From assembly GCF_003610535.1 (NCBI RefSeq), contig NZ_RAPN01000001.1:955320-979319 (forward strand): a stretch of DNA of 24,000 nucleotides, given 5' to 3'. This stretch comes from Mangrovibacterium diazotrophicum. GTDB lineage: Bacteria > Bacteroidota > Bacteroidia > Bacteroidales > Prolixibacteraceae. Positions 1,464 through 19,366 of the stretch are shown piece by piece (within the stretch, counting starts at the first letter, position 1; each line of letters begins with the position of its first letter). A program made the position numbers and the translations under genes. The notes below the pieces were generated by a model. The model ran no database searches and was not told the origin of the DNA. It saw only the letters and a program-made list of their open reading frames with translations.

Positions 1464-2952
1464 TCTGAAGAATCCCGGTGCTAATGGTTTACTAAGGGAA
1501 TTTGAATGGATTGCAAACTACGATTTAGATGATGTGAAGAGCCTAAATCCCAAATGTTTGATTGGAGTAAATGGCTCTGGTAAGTCTCAATTGTTGGAGG
1601 CTATTACTGAGATTTTCTATTTGCTGGAAGATCACTGGAAGAACAAAAACAAACTACCCGCCGATTTGTGCTTTAACTTAGAGTTCTTTCTAAACCGACC
1701 AGAAGGGATACACGAAGTAAGAATCACAAAGGAAGAAAAGAAAAAGGTTGAGGTATATGAAAGTGATGGCGCTGAGTTTTTTGAGTACAGCGGAAAACTT
1801 GAAGAATTGCTACCTCAAAGAATCGTTGGCTATACATCTGGTCAAAATGAAACTCTCTCTCTACGATACCTAGATGTTTATTCTGGTTATGCAGAAGAAG
1901 TCGGAAGTGCAGCCCTGAAACCGGAAAGTAAAGATAAAACCATAGAAACTCCGCGCTTCTCATGGGTTGATTATGATTCCAATATTGCGGTGCTTGTTGC
2001 AAATTTCATGCTCCGAAGTTCTACCGACTTATTGCCTTTTGAAAGTCAAATCAGGTTACAATCTATCGACTCATTCAGAGTTATCGTTCAATTAAAGTCA
2101 GGTAAAGAAATAAAACTCACCCATGAACTTGAAGGGTATATCGACAATCTAAAGCGGATTTCGACGACATATGACTACCTAGAATCAAGACAGTCATATG
2201 TGTTTGACTACTTCGTTGATGATCAATCACGAAGGGCATTTAATTCTTTCTTCAAAAACGCGTCTGAATTATTTCTTGCATTCTACAAACTGGGCCTGTT
2301 GAACGAATTAATGATTCAAAAGAAGGTAAGAGAAGGTATTAAAAAACAAAGAAAAGATCATAAAACAATTGTAAAACCGCCGATTGTCCCTGATAGTGAT
2401 AAAGTGTTTCGATTTGATCGAGTAAAAGTAAACAGGACTGATATAAAGCATGAAATCGACTATATCGGATTAAGTGATGGAGAACACCAATTCGTTCATA
2501 TTCTGGGTACAATATTAATGTTTGATGAGGATAACACGCTATTCTTATTGGACGAGCCTGAGTCTCACTTCAATCCGATTTGGAGGATCCAGTTTCTTAA
2601 AACAATTAAAGAAATCACGAAGCATCGCTTTCAGGACTTCTTAATTACTACACATGCACCATATCTACTGTCTGATACGCCGAGAGAAGATATCTACATT
2701 TTTAAACGAAATGGAAACGATGTGACAATTGAGGAGCCGTCAAAAACCACATTTGGAGCATCATTTGACGAGCTACTTGATATTGCCTTTGAAATTAAAC
2801 CACCTATTAGTCAACTATCGACTGAAAGGATCAACAACCTAGTTGAGTCTCAAAGCGAGGATGAAATAAGAAAAGGTATAGCGACAATCGGAGAGTCAGC
2901 CCAAAAAATTAGACTTTTCCAAAGACTCGTAGAATTAAAGAACAAAAACTAA
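1444..2952 (+). CDS. ABC/SMC-like AAA ATPase (restriction-system-associated; PtuA-like)
   Basis: Walker A is GVNGSGKSQLLEAI and an ABC-signature-like LSDGEHQ is present. Walker B is LFLLDEPESHFNP and an H-loop-like ITTHAP follows. A ~250-aa insert lies between Walker A and the signature. The ATG at 1444 overlaps the hsdS 3' end by 20 nt. Confidence 0.8.
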   Translation: MKLKKVSLKNPGANGLLREFEWIANYDLDDVKSLNPKCLIGVNGSGKSQLLEAITEIFYLLEDHWKNKNKLPADLCFNLEFFLNRPEGIHEVRITKEEKKKVEVYESDGAEFFEYSGKLEELLPQRIVGYTSGQNETLSLRYLDVYSGYAEEVGSAALKPESKDKTIETPRFSWVDYDSNIAVLVANFMLRSSTDLLPFESQIRLQSIDSFRVIVQLKSGKEIKLTHELEGYIDNLKRISTTYDYLESRQSYVFDYFVDDQSRRAFNSFFKNASELFLAFYKLGLLNELMIQKKVREGIKKQRKDHKTIVKPPIVPDSDKVFRFDRVKVNRTDIKHEIDYIGLSDGEHQFVHILGTILMFDEDNTLFLLDEPESHFNPIWRIQFLKTIKEITKHRFQDFLITTHAPYLLSDTPREDIYIFKRNGNDVTIEEPSKTTFGASFDELLDIAFEIKPPISQLSTERINNLVESQSEDEIRKGIATIGESAQKIRLFQRLVELKNKN

Positions 2953-4010
2953 TGTTGTTTAAATATTCATATGTGTCTCATGCTTCAACTGAAGACTTTT
3001 ATAAAGAAGTTCAAGTTGTTTTTAAAAATCTTTGGAGAGAGCGGAACAACCTGGGAACTTTTTCACTAACGACGCAGTTATTTACGAGTGAGCAAATTAA
3101 GACCCTAAGGAAATCAAAGAAGTTTAAGCAATTGCTGGAAAATTTTATCAATAATTTTCTTCAATTAGAAGCAGAAGAGCAGAAGGAAGTACTAAGAGCA
3201 TTTATTTGGGAAAATACTATTTCTAGCAGATTGTCTGATATAAACACGCGGATACTTTGCAAAGAAGAACTTCCTTCATCCATTAGAGACCAGACCAAGG
3301 AATTATTTTACTATCTGTATAAAGAAAGGTTCAGAAAGAAGTATTTGAACACTTACTATCCTATATTTTACAATCGTCATAGAAATCGATATTGTCCCTT
3401 TTGTGGCTTGGAAAAAATACCTGCTGCAAACTCGAATAAAAAGCGAGAATATGACCATATTCTCCCAAAATCAATTTATCCTTTTGCAGCGGTTAACTTG
3501 AAAAATCTAGCACCTTCCTGCATTTTCTGTAATGAAGACGCTAAGAAGGATAAAGACATCATTTTTTCTACTAACATAAATGGAGCAAAGCGAAGAAGGG
3601 CTTATGATTACGTTTACGATGGAGACCTGTTAGTAGTTGATATACGAATTGAGAATAGGACTGTATTCCCAAATGCAAATGGGGAGAACAGTGATTGGAT
3701 TCTTACTATTCTCCCTGATGAAGATAAAACAAGGACATGGGATGAAGTTTTTTGCATAAAAGAAAGGTACATCGAGTATCTTGATCAACACTATAATGAT
3801 TGGATTAAAGAGGCCGTTGGATACTGCTTAAGTGATAGTTCACTAACTGATTTGGAAATAAAATCGTCGATAGTGAAGATGCTTACTGGGTTAAATACAG
3901 CAAGCAATGACAATATGGAGAGTAAGCTCAAATTGCGCTTTTATGAGTTGATTTCTAGTGATACAAATTCAATTCCATTTCAGACTATTCAAACAGCGCT
4001 AAACCTGTAA
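2952..4010 (+). CDS. HNH endonuclease-domain protein (PtuB-like core with long N- and C-terminal extensions)
   Basis: The HNH/His-Me finger pattern is RYCPFCG...REYDHILPKSIYPFAAVNLKNLAPSCIFCNEDAKKDKD (CxxC...DH...N...CxxCN). The start overlaps the ATPase stop (TAATG, 1-nt overlap at 2952). Confidence 0.7.
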   Translation: MLFKYSYVSHASTEDFYKEVQVVFKNLWRERNNLGTFSLTTQLFTSEQIKTLRKSKKFKQLLENFINNFLQLEAEEQKEVLRAFIWENTISSRLSDINTRILCKEELPSSIRDQTKELFYYLYKERFRKKYLNTYYPIFYNRHRNRYCPFCGLEKIPAANSNKKREYDHILPKSIYPFAAVNLKNLAPSCIFCNEDAKKDKDIIFSTNINGAKRRRAYDYVYDGDLLVVDIRIENRTVFPNANGENSDWILTILPDEDKTRTWDEVFCIKERYIEYLDQHYNDWIKEAVGYCLSDSSLTDLEIKSSIVKMLTGLNTASNDNMESKLKLRFYELISSDTNSIPFQTIQTALNL

Positions 4011-4015
4011 TAAAT

Positions 4016-4447
4016 ATGAGAACCAATACCCGCTATCACAACTTGGACTTTGTTACCGACACGCTTTGTTACAAGCAAATCGGCAGTTCAACGCTATTCG
4101 TTAGAGATGGCAATTACTTATTGTCTCCTTCGGTATCAGAAGGACAAAACGGTGCATATTGGATCGATATCCGGCAGGCTAATCTGGAACAAATTTCCGA
4201 TCGTAATAACTGTGATTTATTGATCCGGATTGTCCCGGATTTATTTTGCTTGTGCAAACTAAGCCACATCAATAAGCTGCTATCCCCGACATTGATGGAT
4301 AACCGTCCAAACTCAGGTCACGTTTGGGGCATCAAGTTGGACATTAAGCAATTTAAAAAGACTGTTGATATCCGAAGCAACCGCAATAGAGAAATATTCG
4401 TCACTGTTCCTTTACTGACAAAAGAAGAGCTTCTCAGAATGACATAA
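4016..4447 (+). CDS. Hypothetical 143-aa protein, no recognisable motif
   Basis: Clean ATG ORF. It lies 5 nt after the double stop (TAATAA) of the HNH gene and 21 nt before mcrB. Strand and AT-rich composition match the neighbours. No TM segment and no catalytic motif recognised. Confidence 0.55.
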   Translation: MRTNTRYHNLDFVTDTLCYKQIGSSTLFVRDGNYLLSPSVSEGQNGAYWIDIRQANLEQISDRNNCDLLIRIVPDLFCLCKLSHINKLLSPTLMDNRPNSGHVWGIKLDIKQFKKTVDIRSNRNREIFVTVPLLTKEELLRMT

Positions 4448-4468
4448 AACTACTAAACCAAAAATCAA

Positions 4469-7066
4469 ATGACTAAGCAATTTTCGTGGGTGCCTTTTTA
4501 TAAAGAACTATTTTCCATCGTATTGACTTTCGAGGAAAGACAAACAGAGCTGATTGAGTTTCTGAAATACTTAAAGAATGAAATGAAACTTCCGGTCACA
4601 CCTGTACACAACGATATAAACAAAAGTGACAAACAGATTCAACTGAGAGAGATTGATCCCTTTACATTTATCGGAGCATTAAATCGTGGGGTCACTCATG
4701 ATAACCGTACCAGGATAGCAGAACTATTCAAAGAGCATTTCGAGATTGCTGCCGAAACCCCAAGCGACTTCGACGGGATACCTGTTATGAATGCCATGAG
4801 GTCTTGGTATTTTTCTTATGAAAAAGATAGAGGGAAAGACGACATTCCGTTGCTGTGGCAATTGGCAAAAGAAGCACCCAAAGGAATAGATAATATTTCT
4901 CCCAAATTATTTGATGATTGTTTGAAGTTAAAAGGAGTCGGAGCTCCATACCTTACGATGGGGCTTTTTTGGGCTGCTCCTGAACTATTTTCTGCGTGTG
5001 ACCAGGTAATGTTCAATTATATTTCTGGCATAACAGGCAAAAAAATAAAAGTGACGAATTTTAATTCTTACAAAGAATATTTTAAAACAGTTAAAGACCT
5101 ATTCCCTGACAAACAATTATTTGAGGTATCATACGACGCGTGGCATAATAATCAAGATAGTGAGACGAGTGAAGGTGAAAATGAGGAAGAAGAGAACGAA
5201 AACGAGACTTACTATTGGTTATATAGTCCTGGTCCAAAATCTGCTTTTTGGGAAGAGTTCTACACCCATGGAATCATTGCAATTGGTTGGGATCAACTTG
5301 GCAATCTTGAAAATTATGAAAACAAAAGTGACATTGTAACTGCCTTACAAAATCTTTCCACAGAAGAGAATCCAGGCTCAATGAAGAACGATTCAACTGC
5401 TTGCTGGGAATTTGCAAACGACTTAATGCAGGGAGATGTGATTTTCGTTAAAAACGGAGTTAAAGAACTTATCGGAATGGGAATCATTGAAGGTGATTAC
5501 TATTTTGACGATGAACGCACATATTTTAAGAACGTCAGAAAGGTTCAATGGATTAAAAAAGGAAACTGGCCTGTCGATTTTTATCTATCAGCGAAGACTC
5601 TAACCAATGTAACAGAGTACAAGACTGAACATCCTGATTATGAATTTTATCATGAGCGCCTTGATGCTATAATCAACGGAGCTTACAAACCAATTGAAAA
5701 AGATGACAGCAGTGTTATACATGAGCTTCATCCTCTGAATCAAATTCTCTACGGACCTCCCGGAACTGGGAAAACGTTTAATTCCATAAACCACGCTGTT
5801 GCTATCATTGAAGGTAGATCGCTTGATGACATCATGGATGAAAGCCAGGGAAACAGAGAAAGCGTACTAAATCGATTTAACAGCTACAAGGAAGTTGGAC
5901 AAGTTGTTTTCACGACCTTCCACCAAAGCATGAGCTATGAAGATTTTATCGAAGGGATAAAACCAATTGAAATCGAAGGCAAGTTACATTACGAAGTAAA
6001 AGATGGACTCTTCAAGCTAATATCTGACCGAGCTCTACAAAACCAAAAGCAATCGCGCAAATCAGACACCTTAAAACCGTTTGAAGAAGTGTGGCATGAT
6101 TTTCTAGCCCCGCTCTCTGATGAGAAAACGATTCCGATCAAGATGAAAAAATCGTCTTATCAGATCACTGAAGTTACAGACCGGACGATCTTCTTTGACA
6201 AAGAAGTGGGCGAAAGCAAGCACTCATTAAGCGTTGGAACATTAAAAAATATGTACCTGGCTCAGCAAAATGATATCATCCATGGAGGGTTGCAAGGGTA
6301 CTATGAACCGCTACTAGATCTGCTATTGAAAAAAGGTAAAAGCTCAGTATCTGTTGATCCTAAAAACTTTGTATTGATTATTGATGAGATTAACCGTGGC
6401 AACATTGCTCAGATATTTGGTGAATTAATAACGCTTTTAGAGCCAGATAAGAGAGTTGGCGCCAAAGAGGCTCTTACGGTAACTTTGCCATACAGCAAAC
6501 AGAAAAGTTTTGGGGTTCCATCGAATTTGTATCTGATTGGTACTATGAATACGGCAGACCGAAGTGTTGAGGCTTTGGATACCGCATTAAGAAGAAGGTT
6601 CGCTTTTACGGAGGTTTTACCAGACCCAGAAATACTTAAAGAGTGCAGTCCTCTGCTAAACAACGGAGAGGAGTTTAAGCTGCCCGGCGGCCTCGATAGG
6701 TTGGTGGAGCTTATGACTATTATAAACAAGCGTATCGAGAAGCTAATCGACAAGGATCACACAATCGGACACAGCTACTTCTTGGGTGTTGAAACGCTTA
6801 AAGATTTAAAGTCTGTTTTTGTAAATAAAATCATACCCTTATTGCAAGAGTACTTTTATGGAGATATGGCTAAAATAGGCCTGGTGCTTGGTGAAGCTTT
6901 CTTTGAGATATCGAAGTCAGACACAGAAGAAAACATCTTTGCCAGGTTTAAACACGATGCTTTAGACGACTTAATCGATCGTAAGGTATATAAGCTCAAA
7001 ATAAATTGGGAGAGTGACGATGAATTTGTTAGCGCCATCAATGATTTGATCGATCCCAATGTCTAA
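4469..7066 (+). CDS. mcrB: McrB-family AAA+ GTPase subunit of a type IV (modification-dependent) restriction system, with ~415-aa N-terminal extension
   Basis: Walker A is LYGPPGTGKTF (nt ~5750). Walker B is VLIIDEINRGNIAQIFGELITLLE. The McrB signature is LIGTMNTADRSVEALDTALRRRFAF. The N-terminus has a helical domain (MTKQFSWVPFYKELF...) and an acidic linker DSETSEGENEEEENENE. A PUA/EVE-like beta module follows (YYWLYSPGPKSAFWEEF...IAIGW...GDVIFVKNG...IGMGIIEG...VRKVQWI). Confidence 0.9.
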   Translation: MTKQFSWVPFYKELFSIVLTFEERQTELIEFLKYLKNEMKLPVTPVHNDINKSDKQIQLREIDPFTFIGALNRGVTHDNRTRIAELFKEHFEIAAETPSDFDGIPVMNAMRSWYFSYEKDRGKDDIPLLWQLAKEAPKGIDNISPKLFDDCLKLKGVGAPYLTMGLFWAAPELFSACDQVMFNYISGITGKKIKVTNFNSYKEYFKTVKDLFPDKQLFEVSYDAWHNNQDSETSEGENEEEENENETYYWLYSPGPKSAFWEEFYTHGIIAIGWDQLGNLENYENKSDIVTALQNLSTEENPGSMKNDSTACWEFANDLMQGDVIFVKNGVKELIGMGIIEGDYYFDDERTYFKNVRKVQWIKKGNWPVDFYLSAKTLTNVTEYKTEHPDYEFYHERLDAIINGAYKPIEKDDSSVIHELHPLNQILYGPPGTGKTFNSINHAVAIIEGRSLDDIMDESQGNRESVLNRFNSYKEVGQVVFTTFHQSMSYEDFIEGIKPIEIEGKLHYEVKDGLFKLISDRALQNQKQSRKSDTLKPFEEVWHDFLAPLSDEKTIPIKMKKSSYQITEVTDRTIFFDKEVGESKHSLSVGTLKNMYLAQQNDIIHGGLQGYYEPLLDLLLKKGKSSVSVDPKNFVLIIDEINRGNIAQIFGELITLLEPDKRVGAKEALTVTLPYSKQKSFGVPSNLYLIGTMNTADRSVEALDTALRRRFAFTEVLPDPEILKECSPLLNNGEEFKLPGGLDRLVELMTIINKRIEKLIDKDHTIGHSYFLGVETLKDLKSVFVNKIIPLLQEYFYGDMAKIGLVLGEAFFEISKSDTEENIFARFKHDALDDLIDRKVYKLKINWESDDEFVSAINDLIDPNV

Positions 7067-8297
7067 GGTCAGAAAGAATATTATAACTGTCTATGAGCAC
7101 CAAAGCCTAAAGATGGATGTAGACAAAGGCTTTAGTCAAGGGCATTTGGAGGCTTTGCAACGCTATTATGGAGAAAAAGGCACAAACTACTATGGACTGA
7201 TACACAAAGGGGTTAAATTCAGTCAATACGTTGGTGTAATTCAAGTGGGGAGTCTGACCATTGAAGTTCTTCCCAAGACAGATGGTGAAAATCAGAATTA
7301 CTGGCGGTCTCTATTAATCGGGATGCTGAGATCAGTTGGGAGCATAAAGGTGGACAATGCTGGATCTTCCCAACTAAAGATCAGGTCAAACTCAATTTTG
7401 GATCTCTATTTTGAGTTGTATGTAAGTGAATTGGAAGCATTAATTCACAGAGGGTTAATTAAGCAATACCGAAGAATTGAAGAGAATACAACGGCTTTAA
7501 AAGGGAAGCTGCAATTTGGCAGGCAACTGAAACATAACCTTATCCATAAAGAAAGGTTTTTTGTGAACCACCAGTCTTACGATGGCAATCATGTCTTCAA
7601 TCAGATCCTATATGCTGCATTGAAATTAACAGGGGCAGTATGTAATTCACCATTGCTGACTAGTCGTATTGGGGCGCTCCTACTCGCTTTTCCCGAAGTT
7701 GACAGTATTAAGGTCACTGAAGCTACTTTTAACAGGCTGTGCCTCGACCGGAAATCAGAGCCATATCGAGAATCTCTCAATATTGCCCGAATGCTGCTAC
7801 TAAACTATCATCCAGATATCAGTACTGGTGCTCATAACGTGTTGGCCTTAATGTTTGACATGAATGTCCTCTGGGAACGATTTATTTTAGCTAGTTTAAG
7901 ACGTTATGCCAACGACGGCAATTCTGTGTTGGGAAAAATTAGAAAGTCGTTCTGGAAGCCGGAAAATGGCTCTAAAGCTAGCATAGAACCAGATATCGTA
8001 ATGGAAAAAGATGGACAGACTTTGGTTTTGGATACAAAATGGAAAGTAATTAAAAACAATCGTCCGTCAGATGATGATTTAAAACAGATGTATGTTTACG
8101 CGAACTATTATCAGTCCCTTCATACCGCACTCGTTTATCCTGCGACCGGTAACAGTTCGATCAAAGGAAATTTCTACCATGAAATAGATGGAACACAAGG
8201 CAAGCCTTGTTCTGTAATCCGTATCGCCTTGCCTCCTGAGCCAGTTAGTATTAAAAAGTGGCAACAGGAGATTAGTGAGATTTTGGTAGGCGTTTAA
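7059..8297 (+). CDS. mcrC: McrC-family nuclease subunit (PD-(D/E)xK)
   Basis: 8-nt overlap with mcrB (ATGTCTAA). The C-terminal PD-(D/E)xK-type motif is IEPDIVMEKDGQTLVLDTKWK. Size and position are typical of McrC. Confidence 0.85.
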   Translation: MSKVRKNIITVYEHQSLKMDVDKGFSQGHLEALQRYYGEKGTNYYGLIHKGVKFSQYVGVIQVGSLTIEVLPKTDGENQNYWRSLLIGMLRSVGSIKVDNAGSSQLKIRSNSILDLYFELYVSELEALIHRGLIKQYRRIEENTTALKGKLQFGRQLKHNLIHKERFFVNHQSYDGNHVFNQILYAALKLTGAVCNSPLLTSRIGALLLAFPEVDSIKVTEATFNRLCLDRKSEPYRESLNIARMLLLNYHPDISTGAHNVLALMFDMNVLWERFILASLRRYANDGNSVLGKIRKSFWKPENGSKASIEPDIVMEKDGQTLVLDTKWKVIKNNRPSDDDLKQMYVYANYYQSLHTALVYPATGNSSIKGNFYHEIDGTQGKPCSVIRIALPPEPVSIKKWQQEISEILVGV

Positions 8298-8627
8298 GTT
8301 TTCCAGTTTAGTAGACAATTAAAAGAGTGACGGGCGAAGATATCTCAAGTTATTAGGCACTACATTGGGAATTCATAACTCAAATTACATTATGCAAATG
8401 TGTAAAATTTATTACCTTGACAATCCCAATAGCCAATTAAGCAAAAAAATGAATAACCAATTTGAACAACAACAAAGCAACTGGCTAGAGAAAGTCGCTG
8501 ACGGATGCCACAATTGTAAAACAAATCCCGAGTATGCAATGGACTTTGACTTCTATGCCTGTCAGTCGGACAACTCCAATTGACATTCTCAACCAATAAA
8601 AAGATAAACTAATCTAAATGACCTTAT

Positions 8628-11543
8628 ATGGAAACAAAGGTCCAATTGGGGACAGTCGTTTTTTGGCGACATACATTTGGATTCATTGCGATTGAGGATT
8701 TATCTCTCGCTTATTTTTTTCATCGCTCCTCTCTGCGCGATCCTAACCAACATGTAGAATTGCTCGATCAATTCGAGTTCGAAATAGCTGAAACAGACAC
8801 TGGCAAGTTTAAAGGGAAAGCGAGAGCTATCAATCTGCGATTTGTAGAGAAGGGGCGAGTCGACGATCCTCGCTTTGACCGATATGTTGGAACCTTGAAA
8901 TCATGGAATAAAGGTATTGGGCATATCACCACAGAACAGCTGATTGAAACTAGTGAAGTGTACGTTAACACATCTCGAATCCTCGGAGAGCGTCCTCATC
9001 TTTCTCAGGGCGAATTGCTTGTTTTCTGCCCTGTCCAATCTGCTAAATCCCCATCAAATATACTAGCATTGTTTGCATACCCAGTCGATTCCGAGAATGA
9101 CTTGTCCTTTTTAAAACAACAATATTTTGAGACAAGGATTCCTGAATTAGGAAATTATTTATTGAAACAATCAGAGCTAACAGACATTGATCTACAAATA
9201 ATTGAACTTTTCAGCATAGAACGGATAGAGGGGCGGAACATCGAGGGTTATGCAAAACTGAAAGAGGATCTAAAGCGTATTAAAGCGCAGTTTGGATACT
9301 TACCGCCATATAAAGATCTTTTAATTTTTGCAGATGAAGGCTTTTTATTGCAGCTCTTCATTGAAGGTATTATTCCTGACTTCCGATACGAAGATGTCTT
9401 ACATTATTTTCTAAACACAACGTCTATTCAAAAGAAAGAGATACTGTTTCGATTAAATCAGGATGACCAACAACAGATTATCAAAGAATATTTAAACTGG
9501 ATTAAAATCTATGTTGATCTAAATTCAATAGGAAACGAAATTAAGTGTTACCTCGATATTACACATCGTGATAAAAACCTAAAGGATGAAGCCGCATACC
9601 AAGGTCTTGCAGAGATCTTGCTTACAACTTTACCTGTAAGCGAGGTAAAAAAACTGTGGATCAAGAAATATATCGAATTACCACAAAAGTTTATCAAAGA
9701 CAATTTTGATTTAAGCAATCCATATGAAATAATTACATTGTTAGACTCTGAAGACGAGTCGCAAAAACAAATAGCAATCCGTTTGCTTAACGAACAAATA
9801 CTTGAGGTTACCGAGGGTGAAATTCTAAAAAACTATACTTACTACGTCGGCTGGTTAAAATTCATTCAAATCCACAATTCCAGACTATTCCACAAAGAGT
9901 TTACAGAAGCATTGAACGCGTTACCTATCCAGGATAAATATTGTCTGTGGATATTCGATATTTTGCCTTCAATCGACTATACCGCAATACCGCCCTTCGT
10001 CTTCGAGCAGTGTGACTACTATTTACGACTTAGGTCGGCAACCAAAGATCAATACTTTTCTTTCCTAACGAACCATATTGAACAAAATGAGCTGAACGAC
10101 TTTATTCAACAATACGCTTGGAATGAGTTGGTTCAACCCTGCTTCCCCAAAAGTGATACTACGTATTCGCTCTTAGTCGACATATGCGACTGGCAAAAGA
10201 AGTACCAGAATAATACGATTGAAATAGATCCATTAGCAGAGTGTGTTTATCACTCAATTCCAAAGTTTACTGTTCAACACGTTCGTTTGTGGCTTTATGA
10301 TTTTGTAAGCCCGGAGTATCTGGACTATTACGGCTTTCGAGAAGCCTTTAAAAAGTTAAACAATCCAGAAAAAGTCGAGTTCCGAAATAAAGCTAATTGG
10401 CACTCAAAACTTGAATTAGATGAAGAAGCAAAACTAACTGTTGAGCCTTGTACTAATTTCACAGAAACCGAAGATGGTGAGATAATTTACAAGGCTCGGC
10501 TAAATAACATTTATTTTACAAACGGATATTTAGCACTCCGGCTTGAAGATCGTAGCTACACCCAACGTTTTTATGCACCAGAGGTAAGCACAGGTCTGAA
10601 CTCAATAAGTGAATTTAGCAATTTAATTGATCGGGAAATAACAATCCTAGTACGTGAAAAACAGATCCAAAAAGTCGATGATAACCTCTACATAATTCTT
10701 TCCGAAGTTTTTCGGAATTATTTGCTAAAGGCGTTAGCTACTCCTATCGCAAAAAACAAAAAATCCAAGCGAAGCTATGCCTATGCAGAAAACATGGAAC
10801 TTCGGAAACAAGTTTTGAATTACCTAAAAATAATCCAGACGCCAGATAAAAAAACAGTCATATTGGACGAGCCACATGCTTACTATCGACGACTCGACGA
10901 ATCAGTTGAATTCCCCGACGTAGAAAAAGTTGCTCTTTATTCAATCAAAACCTCAGACGGATATGCAATTATCTGGGAAAACATAGATTACAGCTTCGAC
11001 CGAGCAAGCTTTGTTTTTAAAACCACAGATGAAAGCTATGGAAATCTTGTTGAAAAACTCACACTTGCTATTACCCGTTTGGGGCAACTACGCTCAACCT
11101 TGCGAAAACTAGATCCCGATATTAACGAACTACATGAGTTTAAAAACAGCTTAGGTTATGTCGGTACAGTTCTAAAAAAGAGGGGGCAAAACGATGCTTT
11201 TGAATCATGGAAAAACAATCTTACTGAGACTATCAATCGAAAAATACCTCCACAAACAGATCGTCTGTTTGACGAAATTTGGAGAGAACTTAATATAGAT
11301 TCAACCAAATCAGTAAGGCATACTAATCCTCTTCCTGATAAAAAAGGGATAAAGACTGTCGATACAGGAGAAGATAATTCGTCAACTAAAGAAGAAACAA
11401 TTGTGACGGAGAGAAACGATCAGCCCCCAGGTCAAACATCTAGTTTCTCAAACCAATCTCCATATAAGGAAAGGGAAGCAGTTTTATCAGCCTTAAACGA
11501 AATTAACAACCTATTTGAAAACCTACTAAAAATGAAAGAATGA
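8628..11543 (+). CDS. 971-aa protein with two N-terminal cold-shock-like (OB-fold) domains; the remaining ~800 aa are uncharacterised
   Basis: CSD 1 is GTVVFWRHTFGFIAIEDLSLAYFFHRSSL (RNP1-like HTFGFI, RNP2-like YFFHR). CSD 2 is YVGTLKSWNKGIGHITTEQLIETSEVYVNTSRIL...GELLVF. The long uninterrupted ORF has the island's composition. I could find no Walker, HNH, HEPN or clear PD-(D/E)xK motif. Confidence 0.75.
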   Translation: METKVQLGTVVFWRHTFGFIAIEDLSLAYFFHRSSLRDPNQHVELLDQFEFEIAETDTGKFKGKARAINLRFVEKGRVDDPRFDRYVGTLKSWNKGIGHITTEQLIETSEVYVNTSRILGERPHLSQGELLVFCPVQSAKSPSNILALFAYPVDSENDLSFLKQQYFETRIPELGNYLLKQSELTDIDLQIIELFSIERIEGRNIEGYAKLKEDLKRIKAQFGYLPPYKDLLIFADEGFLLQLFIEGIIPDFRYEDVLHYFLNTTSIQKKEILFRLNQDDQQQIIKEYLNWIKIYVDLNSIGNEIKCYLDITHRDKNLKDEAAYQGLAEILLTTLPVSEVKKLWIKKYIELPQKFIKDNFDLSNPYEIITLLDSEDESQKQIAIRLLNEQILEVTEGEILKNYTYYVGWLKFIQIHNSRLFHKEFTEALNALPIQDKYCLWIFDILPSIDYTAIPPFVFEQCDYYLRLRSATKDQYFSFLTNHIEQNELNDFIQQYAWNELVQPCFPKSDTTYSLLVDICDWQKKYQNNTIEIDPLAECVYHSIPKFTVQHVRLWLYDFVSPEYLDYYGFREAFKKLNNPEKVEFRNKANWHSKLELDEEAKLTVEPCTNFTETEDGEIIYKARLNNIYFTNGYLALRLEDRSYTQRFYAPEVSTGLNSISEFSNLIDREITILVREKQIQKVDDNLYIILSEVFRNYLLKALATPIAKNKKSKRSYAYAENMELRKQVLNYLKIIQTPDKKTVILDEPHAYYRRLDESVEFPDVEKVALYSIKTSDGYAIIWENIDYSFDRASFVFKTTDESYGNLVEKLTLAITRLGQLRSTLRKLDPDINELHEFKNSLGYVGTVLKKRGQNDAFESWKNNLTETINRKIPPQTDRLFDEIWRELNIDSTKSVRHTNPLPDKKGIKTVDTGEDNSSTKEETIVTERNDQPPGQTSSFSNQSPYKEREAVLSALNEINNLFENLLKMKE

Positions 11544-12460
11544 CTGAACAAGAAATAAACGAACAGTTAGAAAAGGAAGTTCTGCGACTGACAGCAATTT
11601 TGGACCAGGCTTCACTGTCTAGTACCATCAACAAACGAATATTTTTTGAGCAAAATCAACTCAACCAAGCGCTTGCAGAAATAGACACAACAGTGCAGGA
11701 ATTGGGATTAAAGATCTTAGACATTAGTAACTCTTTGAAATTAAAATCCGATGACGATGACAAGAAATTAGACTGGTTAAACGAGTCCTTCGATGATTTA
11801 AGGAAACTCAAAAAAGACTTAAACCTGCAAAGCACAAATTTAGCCAATGAGCTGAAAAAGGTCCAGAATAACATTGCCTTACTTTCCGCAAAAAATGAAG
11901 ATATTGAGAAAAAATTAATAGTTGCTGAAAATGGGATGAGTGAAACTGAAGAGAACACCTCAAAGATTCTTGAATTAAATAGAAAAATTGACAACGTTAT
12001 CGGCAAAAAGAATTATGCAACGAGTCTATTTTTTTCAGTCTTAGTAGTAGCTATAATAATTTTCTTCTTATGGAATACAAGGCTATCCAATTCTATTGAT
12101 GAGTACAAGGTTAGTACTATTACGTTCTCACAAAGCATTGCAAAGCAAAAAGCAAGAACCCAAGATTTAGAATCTCGTTTGAAAAAGATGGAAGAATTCC
12201 CAGATCCAATTCCCTCCAATACGATTGAATCAAATTCAATATCTATTTCCAAAGAACCTATTAAGATATCCCAATTAAAAGTACGAGCAACATTGTGGAA
12301 TGATAGTAACTTACCAAAAATGGAAAGCATTGAATCTTTTGATCAAGGTACCAAGGTCTATGTTTTAAGTGAGCCAATAAAAACTTATGATCGATCTATG
12401 ATCAAAGTAAGGATTGAAGGAAAAGAAGGTTATATATTTTCATCGTCCATATTTAAATAA
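11540..12460 (+). CDS. 306-aa coiled-coil / single-pass membrane / SH3b-like protein
   Basis: ATGA overlap with the upstream gene. Residues 1-155 are heptad-rich and charged (coiled coil). One hydrophobic helix ATSLFFSVLVVAIIIFFLW lies at aa ~160-178. The C-terminal ~60 aa are VRATLWNDSNLPKMESIESFDQGTKVYVLSEP...IKVRIEGKEGYIFSSSI, a pattern typical of bacterial SH3 (SH3_3) domains. Confidence 0.7.
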   Translation: MTEQEINEQLEKEVLRLTAILDQASLSSTINKRIFFEQNQLNQALAEIDTTVQELGLKILDISNSLKLKSDDDDKKLDWLNESFDDLRKLKKDLNLQSTNLANELKKVQNNIALLSAKNEDIEKKLIVAENGMSETEENTSKILELNRKIDNVIGKKNYATSLFFSVLVVAIIIFFLWNTRLSNSIDEYKVSTITFSQSIAKQKARTQDLESRLKKMEEFPDPIPSNTIESNSISISKEPIKISQLKVRATLWNDSNLPKMESIESFDQGTKVYVLSEPIKTYDRSMIKVRIEGKEGYIFSSSIFK

Positions 12461-12688
12461 CAAAACACAAAAGAACTGAACTTGCTCAAAGAATTTAGAT
12501 ATTTAATAGAAAAAACAAGCTCTATGGATGAAATCAGGCACCAATTATAGTCTAAATCGGTGCAATTCGGCCCTAAATATTTTCCTGTTTTATTCCTTTG
12601 TTTTCTCCAAAGAAAGAGTTAGTTACAAAAGTTGCATCACGGAAATTTTATGATTATTTTTATCTAAAGTAGACTCAAATAGAAAGCT

Positions 12689-12991
12689 ATGGCAAAAGGA
12701 GTAAAAACTGGTGGACGGAGCAAAGGGACCCCTAACAAGCTTACTGGAACGGTGAAAGAGATGATCCTTCAAGCAATTTCTATGGAAATTGAGAACTTGC
12801 CTGCGATTTTAAAGGAGCTTGAACCAAAAGAAAAAGCTGATTTTGTGATTAAGTTACTTCCTTACATCTTACCTAAAGCAAAAGAAGTGTCTGGTATGCA
12901 AGGGGGGTGGACCAGCTCTCACGATAGATTTGTTGAAGGTATCATGGAAAAGATGAGAAAGTCTCCTCCGCTGAAATCCACTGCAAGTTAG
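12689..12991 (+). CDS. Hypothetical 100-aa protein with basic Gly/Lys-rich N-terminus
   Basis: ATG ORF after a 228-nt AT-rich gap. The N-terminus MAKGVKTGGRSKGTPNKLTG resembles basic N-termini common in small phage/integrative-element proteins. This comparison is from memory and is not a family assignment. The ORF is followed by the terminator hairpin. Confidence 0.45.
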   Translation: MAKGVKTGGRSKGTPNKLTGTVKEMILQAISMEIENLPAILKELEPKEKADFVIKLLPYILPKAKEVSGMQGGWTSSHDRFVEGIMEKMRKSPPLKSTAS

Positions 12992-13051
12992 TGATTCAAT
13001 TTAGATCGGTTTTCCAAATCTTTGTATCCTATTTGTATCTTATGAAATACA

Positions 13052-13083: not shown

Positions 13084-13088
13084 ACAAG

Positions 13089-13162
<74 letters not shown>

Positions 13163-16229: not shown

Positions 16230-17600
16230 ATGAAAAAAAACCGAGACTACACCTTTCACGAGGCTACGACCAGCTTGTGCTCTGACTGCATGCAACGGAT
16301 TCCGGCGAAAATCGTGCTGAAAGACGGGCACGTTTTTTTGAAGAAATCCTGTCCTCAACACGGCATTCATTTTGAGTTGCTGGAGGAAGATGCCGATTAC
16401 CACTTGGCGAAAAGACGCTACGACAAACCTGGAACTTTTACCACAGCTCAAACCAGTATCCGGAAAGGTTGCCCCTACGACTGCGGACTCTGCCCGGATC
16501 ATGATCAACATACCTGTATCGGACTCATCGAAGTTACCAACCAATGCAATCTGAACTGCCCGGTTTGCTTTGCAAATAGCGGCAAAGAGGAATTCCTTAC
16601 ACTGGAGCAGATTGACCAGATCCTGGATAAATACATTGCGTTGGAAAACGGCGATGCAGAGATCCTGCAAATCAGTGGTGGCGAGCCGACTGTTCATCCT
16701 CAAATTCTCGAGATTATTCAGCTGGCACTGTCCAAAAAAATCCGTTTTGTGATGCTGAATACCAACGGGGTGAGAATAGCGTCGGATAAGGAATTTGCAC
16801 GGCAGTTGAGCCAGTTCAAAGAGCGCTTTGAGGTTTACCTGCAGTTCGATGGTTTCAAGGAATCGACTCACCGGCATTTCCGCGGAAAGGACCTTCGCGC
16901 GGTTAAGCAGAAAGCCATTGATAATTTACTGGAAGAAGGCGTCCCGGTCACTTTGGTTTCAACCGTTGAAAATGGAATTAATGACGACGAGTTGGGACCG
17001 ATTGTTGAATTTGGCATGAATCGAAAAGGAATTCGTGGCGTCAGTTTCCAGCCTGTAAGCTATTTCGGACGGATTGATTCAACAGCCAACATCAAACGAA
17101 GCACACTCTCCGGAATTATCAAACAGCTGGAGTCACAGCTCAGCTCTGTGTTTAAACCCGGAGACATTATTCCGTTGCCCTGCAATGTGGAGCGCGTAGC
17201 TATTTCGTATCTCATCAAGGACAAGAAAGGCCGTTTCACACCGCTGCCCCGAACTATAAAAGTTGACAGTTACCTGCCGGTTATCGAAAACACCTTTGCC
17301 TTCGATGCCGAGCGTTTTGTCAACGAGCAAGTTCGCCACATCCAGAATAACCTGCAACTGTGCGATTGTTTCAAACTCGTCAACGATATTTACAAATACA
17401 TTCCCCGAAACTACAAGCTAAAATCGGCCGAAGACCAAAAGAATTTCATCGATGAAAATACCTTTCGGATCAGCATCACCTCGTTCCTGGACAAACACAA
17501 CTTCGATCTGAAATCAGCGCAAAAGGAATGTGTTCACATCCTGACACCCGATTTAAAGCGAATGCCATTTTCAACCTATAACCTGTTGTACCGAAAATGA
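16230..17600 (+). CDS. Radical SAM enzyme with N-terminal zinc-ribbon/rubredoxin-like knuckle and auxiliary Cys cluster
   Basis: The radical SAM motif is CNLNCPVCFA (CxxxCxxC). GGEPT is present as a SAM-binding motif. The upstream auxiliary motif is CPYDCGLCPDHDQHTC. The N-terminal knuckle is CSDCMQRIPAKIVLKDGHVFLKKSCPQHG. Confidence 0.85.
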   Translation: MKKNRDYTFHEATTSLCSDCMQRIPAKIVLKDGHVFLKKSCPQHGIHFELLEEDADYHLAKRRYDKPGTFTTAQTSIRKGCPYDCGLCPDHDQHTCIGLIEVTNQCNLNCPVCFANSGKEEFLTLEQIDQILDKYIALENGDAEILQISGGEPTVHPQILEIIQLALSKKIRFVMLNTNGVRIASDKEFARQLSQFKERFEVYLQFDGFKESTHRHFRGKDLRAVKQKAIDNLLEEGVPVTLVSTVENGINDDELGPIVEFGMNRKGIRGVSFQPVSYFGRIDSTANIKRSTLSGIIKQLESQLSSVFKPGDIIPLPCNVERVAISYLIKDKKGRFTPLPRTIKVDSYLPVIENTFAFDAERFVNEQVRHIQNNLQLCDCFKLVNDIYKYIPRNYKLKSAEDQKNFIDENTFRISITSFLDKHNFDLKSAQKECVHILTPDLKRMPFSTYNLLYRK

Positions 17601-18187
17601 TGAACCAGGTATCCGATATCACCATCCTGATTTGTCTGTTGGCACTTTTCATCGCCATCCTCATCAATTTCGTGGAGCGAAACAAAAAGGTTCAGACTGA
17701 AAAGAAAAGCATTGTTGAAACCGGCTCGATGACGGGCTTTTTCATCTTTTTCTACCTGCTGATCCGCTTTAAAATCGGGGACCTTCAGCTTCCGGAAACA
17801 GCTGCACTTATTCTCAAACCCATCGGTTTGCTTCTGGTTATCGCCGGAACCTACATCAATATTCGCAGCCGCAAAACATTGGGTGCGAATTGGGCCAACC
17901 AGGTCACCCTTTACACCGATCAACAGGTGGTTTGCTCGGGTATGTATAAATACATCCGCCACCCGCTTTACAGCTCCATCATTGCCATGTTTTACGGAGC
18001 CTGCCTGGTGTACCCGAACTACCTGGCATTTGCAGCCAACACCCTCATCTTCGTCCCTTTCATGTACTATCGGGCCAGGCAGGAGGAAAATCTGCTCCGG
18101 AAACGTTTGCCCGGTTACGAAGAGTACAGACGAAAAACCGGTTTATTCATTCCTAAACTGATTAAAAATGAAAGCAATTCCAATTAA
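17597..18187 (+). CDS. Integral-membrane methyltransferase of the ICMT/PEMT (isoprenylcysteine carboxyl / phospholipid methyltransferase) family
   Basis: ATGA overlap with the radical SAM gene. There are multiple TM helices. The C-terminal signature is LVCSGMYKYIRHPLYSS...YRARQEENLLRKRLPGYEEYRRKTGLFIP. Confidence 0.8.
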   Translation: MMNQVSDITILICLLALFIAILINFVERNKKVQTEKKSIVETGSMTGFFIFFYLLIRFKIGDLQLPETAALILKPIGLLLVIAGTYINIRSRKTLGANWANQVTLYTDQQVVCSGMYKYIRHPLYSSIIAMFYGACLVYPNYLAFAANTLIFVPFMYYRARQEENLLRKRLPGYEEYRRKTGLFIPKLIKNESNSN

Positions 18188-18587
18188 TGCATTTCGCTTT
18201 TGCAAAATAACGGTCACCCTGCTGGTTTGGCTGGCCTTTGCCTTCCAATCAATGCCACTACTGGTGATCGTGTTCTTGATCCTCGGATTATCAGCCCTGT
18301 TGAAAATTCAGCGGGCACCTCTGATAGTCCTGTATTCATTCACGATCGAAAGAATTATTCCCTCGCGAATGAAAGAAGTACACGAAACAGGCCTTCGCTT
18401 TGCGCACAGTTTGGGCACGGTGCTTTGTGCGATTTGCATCGCCTTGACAGTACTCTTTCCAACCGTTGGCTGGTGGTATGTGCTGGCATTTGCTGTTTTA
18501 AAAACGGTGTCGATGCTTGGCCTGTGCCCGGGTGAAGCCATGTATTCCTGTTACGCAGAAGGGAGCTGCAGTATTTTCAAAAAATGA
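18168..18587 (+). CDS. Small ~4-TM membrane protein (DUF4395-like; assignment from memory only)
   Basis: 20-nt overlap with the upstream gene and ATGA overlap with the downstream gene. It has four hydrophobic segments and a Cys-containing C-terminus GLCPGEAMYSCYAEGSC. Confidence 0.55.
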   Translation: MKAIPINAFRFCKITVTLLVWLAFAFQSMPLLVIVFLILGLSALLKIQRAPLIVLYSFTIERIIPSRMKEVHETGLRFAHSLGTVLCAICIALTVLFPTVGWWYVLAFAVLKTVSMLGLCPGEAMYSCYAEGSCSIFKK

Positions 18588-19366
18588 TCGACAATCACAC
18601 ATTCCCGGCAAATTGGGGAATTTTCCCCGTCATCTTTCGAATTGGCAAACTCGAAGTCAGTTCCTACTCCTTCTTTGTGCTGCTTGGGTTGATTGTCGGG
18701 CTCTCCGTTTATTTCCTCCTCGCCAGACGCTACAAACAAGCCAGCGAGAACTCATTCTATGTGGTTGTTGCCGGCGTTGTTGGCGGTATTTTGGGAGCCA
18801 AACTCCCTTACTGGATTTTCAACTACCAGGTCATCGTGGAAAACTACCCGAATATCGGCCCCATTCTTTCCGGGCGAACCATTACCGGCGGACTGATTGG
18901 CGGTACTTTGTCGGTTATCTACATCAAACGCCGGCTGGGAATTACCGATAAAAAAGGCAATCTGTTTGCACCGGCCATTGCTATTGGCGTGGCCATTGGC
19001 CGACTCGGATGCTTTGCCCGTGGCTGCTGCTATGGCGAGCCAACCACTTTGCTCTGCGGAGTCAATTTCGGAGATGATGTTCTGCGCCACCCGACTCAAC
19101 TCTACGAAACGGTATTCTTCATTGGATTCTTCATCTACAGCCTGATCCGGATAAAAAGTGCGCCACCGGGATTTCTGTTTTATGCGCTTATGAACAGCTA
19201 CTTCATCCTTCGTTTTTTCGAAGAATTTATCCGCTACAACGACCAGTTCTTTTGGGGGCTTTCCTTCTTTCAATACATCTCAATTGTCGCTGTCGTCTTT
19301 ATCAACCTGAAACAATACCTTGAAAAAACTCAACATCATGGAAGACTATTATCAACAAAAAGGTAG
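18584..19366 (+). CDS. Prolipoprotein diacylglyceryl transferase (Lgt) family protein, divergent paralogue
   Basis: The Lgt hallmarks HPTQLYE and the GR-loop are present, the latter as the Cys-rich variant GRLGCFARGCCYGEP. The protein is polytopic. Confidence 0.8.
   Translation: MIDNHTFPANWGIFPVIFRIGKLEVSSYSFFVLLGLIVGLSVYFLLARRYKQASENSFYVVVAGVVGGILGAKLPYWIFNYQVIVENYPNIGPILSGRTITGGLIGGTLSVIYIKRRLGITDKKGNLFAPAIAIGVAIGRLGCFARGCCYGEPTTLLCGVNFGDDVLRHPTQLYETVFFIGFFIYSLIRIKSAPPGFLFYALMNSYFILRFFEEFIRYNDQFFWGLSFFQYISIVAVVFINLKQYLEKTQHHGRLLSTKR

Follow-up and report, generated by a model that had tools for sequence, protein, structure and literature searches.

Introduction

The Kiwa defence system consists of a polytopic membrane protein, KwaA, and a DNA-binding protein, KwaB, which has no cold-shock domains (CSDs). 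In this work we analysed by computation a pair of genes in a 24,000-nucleotide (nt) stretch of the genome of Mangrovibacterium diazotrophicum, a member of the Bacteroidota and Marinilabiliales (contig NZ_RAPN01000001.1, positions 955,320 to 979,319; the whole stretch is called the window here). They encode a 971-amino-acid (aa) protein headed by two cold-shock-like barrels (gene 1) and a 306-aa coiled-coil membrane protein (gene 2). TnsE, the target selector of Tn7, joins two N-terminal OB/SSB-like domains to a C-terminal domain (CTD) that binds duplex DNA, and targets replication structures (PMC10293859, PMC12153342). CoCoNuT systems carry CSD-like OB folds and long coiled coils that are predicted to engage RNA or single-stranded DNA (PMC11090510). 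These two are the nearest descriptions found in the literature, CoCoNuT for the combination of CSD and coiled coil in defence; literature searches turned up no account of the gene 1 family or of the pair.

The pair is conserved across Bacteroidota and forms a candidate defence module that had not been described before, nor had the protein families that compose it; a mechanism for it is proposed below. We put at about 50% the reading that it is a horizontally acquired two-gene anti-phage or anti-mobile-element module acting as a membrane-tethered sensor of nucleic-acid structure. A sequence-only reading of the window had already singled out the two genes as an unrecognised candidate defence pair, and that proposal stands on the conservation of the genes as neighbours, on their defence contexts and on the negative results of profile and structure searches.

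Results

Gene 1 family and its conserved partner gene

Exhaustive HMMER searching of 1.84 billion representatives with gene 1 (product WP_120271842.1) gave 96 matches, 60 of them at E ≤ 1e-30. The family comprises about 60 clusters at 50% identity. About 45 relatives are full-length (935-1100 aa), share 24-33% identity and align over residues 4-880. In the alignments, conservation spans the whole length of gene 1 and peaks in its C-terminal third. The family surfaced solely in this exhaustive search; a word-indexed homology search returned gene 1 itself and nothing else. Pfam found a sub-threshold CSD alone in gene 1, whereas NCBIfam, PADLOC and PHROGs found nothing, and a PDB sequence search with the protein retrieved only the CSDs of Unr. 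Over 42 family members Pfam reported a CSD in 28 and no other meaningful family. PADLOC-DB v2.0, which includes Kiwa, Zorya, Septu, Lamassu and the PDC candidates, matched neither protein with any family at E ≤ 0.01. Beyond the CSD, neither protein is covered by Pfam, NCBIfam, PADLOC v2.0 or PHROG, newer defence catalogues and AlphaFold DB being outside the comparison. In sensitive hidden Markov model (HMM) and structure searches, no family with a housekeeping or prophage-structural function and no named defence family took in either protein. A prophage or plasmid origin of the pair was considered and rejected, with no relatives of the gene 1 family in IMG/VR, among INPHARED phages or on PLSDB plasmids and no meaningful PHROG match.

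Related loci were collected by pattern scans (8 genomic and 23 metagenomic), and more were added by exact look-ups. The partner gene was scored wherever at least 0.5 kb was available downstream of the gene 1 homologue, which with the window gave 31 loci. An open reading frame (ORF) on the same strand follows the gene 1 stop codon in 31/31 of them, as the sequence-only reading would have it. Its start lies between -11 and +22 nt of that stop in 30 loci and at +148 in the remaining one, and the two genes overlap by 4 nt (a gap of -4 nt) in 10/31. Further loci outside the scored set (L038-L042) obey the same rule. The partners range from 113 to 468 aa and share an N-terminal motif, IEQQLQxELxRLKKAIEYIEQA, followed by a coiled coil of variable length. 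A transmembrane (TM) helix is found in 20 of the 29 unique partners and lies at their C-terminus, except where a post-TM domain follows it in the long partners. The pair alone is constant across loci, with no conserved third gene. We concluded that the two genes almost certainly form a conserved functional pair.

The part of the partner that follows the TM helix differs between lineages. An extracytoplasmic domain is present there in five of them (the window, L003, L038, L040 and L041), varies by lineage and has no Pfam match in any of the five. The L040 (4716-5906) and L041 (13045-14025) partners have homologous domains of ~200 aa after a Pro/Ala-rich linker (BLASTP E 2.5e-57), again without a Pfam match and unrelated to the post-TM domain of the window. 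In L004, a 291-aa ORF (3732-4607) lies directly before the gene 1 homologue and after a DpdF/PsyrT-like helicase, and matches the partner HMM weakly (E 8e-5 to 2e-4), which might be explained by a second paralogue of the coiled-coil protein or by composition.

Known defence genes lie within 10 kb of the pair in 13 of 18 distinct neighbourhoods (Table 1), which agrees with the defence-island setting first proposed, as a raw tally without a background rate. BREX genes are near the pair in three of these neighbourhoods, and a distant relative (L044) is flanked by GmrSD and a tyrosine integrase. That integrase is the sole recombinase in the Pfam-annotated neighbourhoods, which contain no TnsA, TnsB or TnsC, no other transposase and no conjugation genes. 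McrBC adjoins the pair in the window alone and in 0/17 of the other neighbourhoods. On this evidence we lean towards a conflict or defence role for the pair.

Cold-shock barrels and helical scaffold of gene 1

The AlphaFold2 model of gene 1, made from the family alignment, has a mean predicted local distance difference test score (pLDDT) of 82. Two barrels (residues 5-74 and 86-152) are followed in it by helices alone from 159 to 604, a beta-rich segment at 611-683 and an alpha/beta segment at 723-870. Residues 890-945 are disordered, and a helix at 945-970 closes the chain. The window's first CSD scored E 7e-5 (23 bits) against Pfam PF00313, under the gathering score of 27, and the best match to the same family among 42 relatives reached E 2.7e-9. 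When the gene 1 family profile was compared with the CSDs of Unr and CspA, E values ran from 7.7e-13 (Unr) to 1e-4. In CSD1 the RNP1 (Y/F17-G18-F19-I20) and RNP2 (F30-F31-H32) motifs are kept in 36-42 of 42 sequences, and in the less canonical second barrel W93, G98 and R117 are conserved in the family. In a Foldseek search of PDB the tandem CSDs of Unr ranked highest (E 2e-6), and the CSD1-CSD2 heads of RNase II/R came next. The alignments to the Unr tandem CSDs and the RNase II/R N-termini covered 160-230 columns, and target template-modelling scores against single CSDs were 0.6-0.8. The profile matches, the Foldseek results and the conservation of the motifs together argue that the two OB folds which the sequence-only reading saw at the start of gene 1 are real, and the predicted barrels may reasonably be expected to bind nucleic acid.

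The ~450-aa helical scaffold gave ARM/importin-alpha-like Foldseek matches at low probability (0.25-0.5) and no Pfam or PDB sequence match. Gene 1 matches no enzyme family and lacks Walker A and HNH motifs as well as a conserved HEPN motif, so in this respect the earlier description of the ~800 aa behind the barrels holds. This part is not featureless, as it comprises the scaffold, a C-terminal module and a tail helix. Because of the helical scaffold, the marginal likeness of the module to the TnsE CTD and the tail helix, these ~800 aa point to recognition of nucleic-acid structure rather than to simple sensing of single-stranded RNA.

C-terminal module and tail helix

The module at residues 608-870 contains the motifs YxEDW, EPxN..RRLD, IIWENID.S.DRATYVFK and RKxRG. 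Modelled separately (residues 601-895), it reached a pLDDT of 88 and a predicted template-modelling score of 0.75. With this model the top seven Foldseek/PDB matches were all chains of the Tn7 TnsE CTD (5d17 with four chains, 9d5l and 5d16), one of them DNA-bound. The matches below them were noise and included no enzyme fold, and a library of viral structures gave nothing. The lead is attractive because TnsE itself has two N-terminal OB/SSB-like domains and a duplex-binding CTD. The predicted likeness is marginal and is treated here as a lead, with no classification of the module. Two other assignments were tried and rejected. A PD-(D/E)xK or other nuclease, suggested by acidic residues and an alpha-beta-beta-beta-alpha order, found no nuclease fold in Foldseek and no profile match; a Whirly/PUR-like reading had very low-probability Foldseek matches alone.

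Behind the module, a poorly conserved linker leads to the conserved tail helix, a candidate docking element for the N-terminal motif of the partner. Three longer, distant proteins (P0082, P0091 and P0096) have only residues ~540-870 in common with gene 1, and all three keep the tail helix. In the two of their loci that were examined, a coiled-coil, C-terminally anchored ORF follows, and the one at L044 matches the partner HMM (E 1e-8). No Pfam domains were found in the longer proteins with the module. Since these distant proteins share the module alone and still keep the tail helix and the partner, the conserved unit is made up of the coiled-coil partner and, in gene 1, the C-terminal module with its linker and the tail helix. 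In gene 1 the N-terminal parts are interchangeable, and so are the extracytoplasmic domains in the partners. In L043, a 424-aa gene (6637-7911) with a CSD-like start (GIITKVHADRSGFLRGQNGAHYRFYADG) lies upstream of a 1100-aa module-bearing protein (8001-11303), as though the architecture of gene 1 had here been divided between two genes.

Gene 2 of the window

The product of gene 2 (WP_120271843.1) occupies the conserved partner position. The long coiled coil and single TM helix first seen by eye were borne out: over residues 1-155 the hydrophobic periodicity peaks at 3.5 residues, a value reached by 0/500 shuffles, the segment has no prolines, and a TM helix follows at about residues 158-180. 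Two lysines precede the helix and the net charge after it is neutral. The N-terminus is probably inside, because the tail-anchored relatives force this orientation and the flanks of gene 2 are consistent with it. The SH3b-like C-terminus proposed in the sequence-only reading found no support. No Pfam family, SH3 included, matched it at E ≤ 0.5, no SH3b protein was among the PDB sequence matches at E ≤ 10, and BLASTP against a Pfam-verified SH3_3/SH3_4 protein gave no alignment. The name "SH3 domain-containing protein" is the UniRef label of gene 2 alone, unconfirmed by profile or alignment.

As to sequence, gene 2 is a singleton, with no homologue in 5.8 billion clusters by word-indexed search. 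Similarity to the partner family is not significant, so the claim of conserved neighbours holds for the window's own gene 2 in position, coupling and topology and lacks significant support in sequence. The partner HMMs, which recover the other partners at E 1e-5 to 1e-44, give gene 2 only 4.5-5.9 bits (E 1-2.6), and this counts against reading it as a member of the family. A match of its N-terminus to the partner motif, seen by eye, is unsupported by HMM at any usual threshold. The sole hhalign alignment puts residues 2-22 on motif positions 3-23 (P 0.0056, probability only 6.6%). With the null2 correction off, the score is 10.5-12.4 bits, which 2/1000 shuffles reach, and a coiled-coil segment from the interior of gene 2 comes close with about 10 bits.

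These results bear on the explanation that gene 2 is an unrelated coiled-coil/TM gene that displaced the original partner by non-orthologous replacement. It would account for the failure of the partner HMM in gene 2 alone and for the lack of any homologue in the clusters searched. Against it stand the family position of gene 2, its ATGA coupling to gene 1 and its coiled-coil-then-TM topology with the N-terminus inside, as well as the hhalign alignment on the N-terminal motif and the tail helix of gene 1, which is kept in the window. The HMM scores also decay gradually in divergent lineages (L042 32, L040 22 and L041 13 bits). We consider replacement rather unlikely and gene 2 probably a very divergent orthologue of the partner family.

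The island and the surroundings of the pair

The sizes of the two ORFs, their ATGA overlap, the gaps around them and the AT-rich composition given in the sequence-only reading were all reproduced. The stop/start overlap would imply translational coupling. The probability that 306 codons run without a stop at the local composition is 1.5e-10, so neither ORF is a chance ORF. There are 330 nt between the end of mcrC (8297) and gene 1, and 228 nt between gene 2 and the next ORF at 12689. The pair is set off as an operon by its gaps and overlap, as had been described, with the qualification that a 63-codon ORF lies inside the upstream gap. Neither this ORF nor the gap DNA has a counterpart upstream of the pair in any related locus. 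A sigma-70 scan of the gap gave no more than chance, the sigma-70 model being ill-suited to Bacteroidota promoters. In the flanking gaps Rfam matched the tRNA alone, and repeats were at chance level.

GC content is 0.33-0.39 over the pair and throughout 1-13000 and rises to 0.46-0.52 beyond about 13000. Since the low GC runs up to this boundary and a tRNA-Arg gene lies exactly there, the region has the form of a classical tRNA-flanked acquired island. At the tRNA gene itself GC goes from about 0.35-0.40 to about 0.47-0.52, and with the 3' end of that gene facing it, the island has the look of an integrative element targeted to the tRNA. Inside the window there is no att-like repeat of the tRNA-Arg, and the second end of the island is beyond window position 1.

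According to Pfam and PADLOC, the genes before the pair are, in order, HsdS, a PtuA/PtuB-like pair, a 143-aa ORF without a family, a McrB-like protein and McrC. The PtuA/PtuB-like genes look like a Septu-like pair embedded in a type I restriction-modification (RM) locus. In the McrB-like protein, the N-terminal ~400 aa have no Pfam match and residues ~250-407 match PADLOC PDC-S02 and type II restriction endonuclease models; a DNA-reader domain of an unusual kind may lie in this N-terminus. A 100-aa ORF (12689-12991, plus strand) that separates the pair from the tRNA matches PHROG 11043, of unknown function, weakly (E 5e-5), and may be a remnant of the element that delivered the island. Outside the island, 16230-19366 (plus strand) encodes a radical-SAM protein with an HMPTM-type zinc ribbon, a PEMT/ICMT-family methyltransferase, a DUF4395 protein and a prolipoprotein diacylglyceryl transferase, which may form a lipid or lipoprotein-modification operon.

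Table 1. Features of the gene pair and its island in the window, and defence genes within 10 kb of the pair in the 13 neighbourhoods that have them
Locus	Feature	Position	Strand	Basis or remark
Window	Gene 1, 971 aa	8628-11543	+	
Window	CSD1, canonical cold-shock barrel, residues 5-74	8640-8849	+	Pfam, profile, AlphaFold2 strands, motifs
Window	CSD2, less canonical OB/CSD-like barrel, residues 86-152	8883-9083	+	AlphaFold2 strands, Foldseek
Window	All-helical scaffold, ~450 aa, residues 159-604	9102-10439	+	AlphaFold2
Window	C-terminal beta-rich/alpha-beta module, residues 608-870	10449-11237	+	Best-conserved part of the family
Window	Low-complexity, predicted-disordered linker, about residues 890-944	11295-11459	+	pLDDT <50, poorly conserved
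Window	Tail helix, residues 945-970, VLSALNEINNLFENLL; family LLNxLKxFNQxFTENL	11460-11537	+	Conserved
Window	ATGA stop/start overlap of genes 1 and 2	11540-11543	+	
Window	Gene 2, 306-aa bitopic membrane protein in conserved partner position	11540-12460	+	
Window	Cytoplasmic coiled coil, residues 1-155	11540-12004	+	Heptad periodicity
Window	Single TM helix, about residues 158-180	12011-12079	+	Kyte-Doolittle maximum 2.58
Window	Extracytoplasmic C-terminal domain, residues 185-306	12092-12457	+	Beta-rich, lineage-specific
Window	Upstream gap, presumed promoter region	8298-8627	+	330 nt
Window	63-codon ORF with CxxC...C pattern, inside upstream gap	8392-8583	+	
Window	PtuA-like ATPase (AAA_15/AAA_21) and PtuB/PDC-M01B/PDC-M62B-like protein	1444-4447	+	Overlaps hsdS end by 20 nt
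Window	McrB-like protein, 865 aa	4469-7066	+	Canonical GTPase core: GPPGTGKT, MNTADR
Window	tRNA-Arg(TCT)	13088-13162	-	At GC boundary; 3' end faces island
Window	Type I RM (HsdS), Septu-like pair, McrBC			
L003	HmaA/HmaB			
L004	DpdF/PsyrT-like helicase			
L007/L035	MmeI-type RM, 1810-aa helicase			
L008/L036	WYL, RmuC, type IIG RM			
L018	Methylase-SNF2 fusion			
L023	BrxA, BrxB, BrxC, PglX			
L032	UvrD-PDDEXK, NERD helicase, methylase			
L033	HsdM, HsdR			
L038	SNF2 helicase, YhcG, Eco57I-type methylase			
L040	PLD/NgoFVII-like nuclease			
L041	Complete BREX, AAA_21, PIN			
L042	TOTE helicase module, BREX, CD-NTase			

Discussion

Proposed mechanism

We propose that gene 1 is a large cytosolic protein without a recognisable catalytic domain that would read nucleic-acid structure. 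Its two N-terminal barrels would bind single-stranded nucleic acid, and its TnsE-CTD-like C-terminal domain the double-stranded DNA next to it. By the same logic as in TnsE, the protein would in this way recognise junctions of single strand and duplex, for example on foreign DNA that is being replicated, injected or conjugated. By way of the flexible linker, the tail helix would dock on the N-terminus of the gene 2 product, a coiled-coil protein that presumably forms dimers or oligomers and that in most lineages, the window's included, would be anchored in the inner membrane. This would place the complex at the membrane, where foreign DNA enters. Its action would be stoichiometric: the invading nucleic acid might be sequestered or occluded, or a signal might pass through the partner. 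Even if the pair does serve defence, this particular mechanism is tentative and less likely than not. A bolder version, which we regard as a long shot, is that the pair is a non-enzymatic immune system built on the structural logic of TnsE, a membrane-tethered junction sensor that neutralises foreign DNA by binding it.

Several observations weigh against a membrane-tethered structure sensor in defence. Nine of the 29 unique partners form a 113-aa class that has no TM helix and ends in LKxLKWYQKLFG (L001 from Sphingobacterium cavernae, 11250-11591; L013, 12931-13272; L012, L014, L016, L019, L025, L033 and L034). The gene after the TM-less partner of L013 runs in the other direction, which leaves no TM segment that is encoded apart from the partner. 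Not every member of the family is thus anchored in the membrane, and the role of membrane effector, one of two that the sequence-only reading considered, cannot apply throughout it. The structural match of the module to the TnsE CTD is marginal (E 0.03-0.4, probability 0.6-0.96, target template-modelling score 0.43-0.53, or 0.51 at E 0.03, root-mean-square deviation 6-9 Å). The C-terminal profile found 0 matches at E ≤ 10 among PDB sequences, a set in which the TnsE chains should be present, and the Pfam family TnsE_C (PF18623) is absent in the window protein and 41 relatives. The most conserved residues of the module are largely acidic (E721, D722, E748, D757, E784, D787 and D791) and would be more at home in a metal or catalytic site than on a surface that binds DNA; the module may thus be an enzyme, possibly metal-dependent, that the searches did not recognise. 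Small, partly annotated and without a background rate, the tally of neighbourhoods is suggestive rather than a statistical enrichment. Five of the 18 neighbourhoods, some of them partly annotated, have no defence genes (L001, L005, L006, L011 and L013).

Other explanations of the pair

The pair could instead act by abortive infection. The CSDs of gene 1 would sense phage nucleic acid and release or activate the coiled-coil TM partner as the effector; the partner would oligomerise and permeabilise the inner membrane, and the cell would die or arrest before phage release. The layout of a sensor with a single-pass membrane protein fits this, as do the defence-rich neighbourhoods, the lack of a recognisable enzymatic effector domain in gene 1 and the coiled coil, which would favour oligomerisation. 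The TM-less class in nine loci, however, indicates that membrane insertion is dispensable in part of the family, and one TM helix that is followed by a mere 0-3 residues makes a minimal anchor and no obvious pore. The variable extracytoplasmic domains of five lineages suggest anchoring or sensing over a conserved lytic function. We regard abortive infection by membrane permeabilisation as improbable.

To a similar degree we doubt that the pair is non-immune cargo of an island or mobile element with another task in nucleic-acid handling, for example a membrane-tethered factor that serves an integrative element in its establishment, its replication or its TnsE-like choice of target, an RNA chaperone or a regulator. 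In its favour are the TnsE-like architecture, TnsE being in the service of a transposon, the tRNA gene that the island of the window abuts and the tyrosine integrase next to a distant relative. CSDs are also classic domains of RNA chaperones, and among the five contexts without defence genes is L011, in which the pair lies between mraZ/ftsL and an ABC transporter. Against it, transposition and conjugation genes are missing from the Pfam-annotated neighbourhoods, and no relatives are found on plasmids, in phages or on viral contigs. The flanks vary while the pair stays constant, which is typical of defence-island cargo and unlike the core machinery of one element.

A role as accessory of the adjacent McrBC, with the CSDs and coiled coil of a CoCoNuT-like extended type IV restriction operon supplied in trans, is largely refuted and very improbable: mcrB and mcrC do lie immediately upstream on the same strand and CoCoNuT systems do join McrBC homologues with CSDs and coiled coils (PMC11090510), but the gap is 330 nt, McrBC adjoins the pair in the window alone, the window McrB has the canonical NxxD form (MNTADR) where the CoCoNuT signature is NxD (PMC11090510), and a P-loop, a McrB GTPase domain and a McrC domain are missing from both proteins.

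Implications

If the pair protects against phages or plasmids, it would add a defence system from Bacteroidota, which experimental screens for defence have sampled too little. With a large subunit that has no known catalytic domain and is laid out in parallel to TnsE, it would make recognition of replication-type DNA structures at the membrane an immune principle open to direct test. About 60 unannotated clusters of one family and a wider set of giant module-bearing proteins would gain a function as well. Neutralisation of foreign DNA by binding on the TnsE logic, if true, would make an evolutionary or convergent link between a transposon's protein for replication-fork targeting and host defence. 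The comparative result is already of use for annotation and for the design of experiments.

Comparison with known systems

In overall plan gene 1 is like TnsE. It has the same order of parts, plus a long helical insert, and apart from the TnsE CTD nothing gave a coherent structural match to its C-terminal module. The two proteins share no sequence similarity and the structural match is marginal. The OB folds of gene 1 are cold-shock domains, whereas those of TnsE are PriB-like SSB folds. The ~450-aa helical insert, the tail helix and the coiled-coil/TM partner are absent from TnsE, and TnsABC transposition genes are absent near the pair in the Pfam-annotated neighbourhoods.

Unr/CSDE1 and RNase II/R are the best sequence and structure matches to residues 1-152 of gene 1, and the RNP1/RNP2 surface of CSD1 is canonical. 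Those proteins are RNA-binding translation regulators or exoribonucleases, whereas gene 1 has neither an RNB domain nor further CSDs, and they have no counterpart of its remaining ~800 aa or of its membrane partner.

CoCoNuT offers a precedent in defence for the combination of CSD and coiled coil, and the pair of the window adjoins McrBC. In CoCoNuT the CSDs and coiled coils are fused to, or in operons with, McrB-like NxD GTPases and McrC nucleases, whereas the pair has no GTPase or nuclease, its adjacent McrB is a canonical NxxD protein and the other loci are without McrBC. Because McrBC adjoins the pair in the window alone and this McrB is canonical, a CoCoNuT-type link is unlikely.

Kiwa resembles the pair in having two genes, one for a membrane protein and one for a large cytosolic protein that acts on DNA without an obvious nuclease domain. 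The two systems show no homology, as the PADLOC models of Kiwa are matched by neither protein, and KwaA is polytopic whereas the partner spans the membrane once and has its coiled coil in the cytoplasm. As an analogy in function, Kiwa is a possible model for the membrane-tethered, stoichiometric action proposed here.

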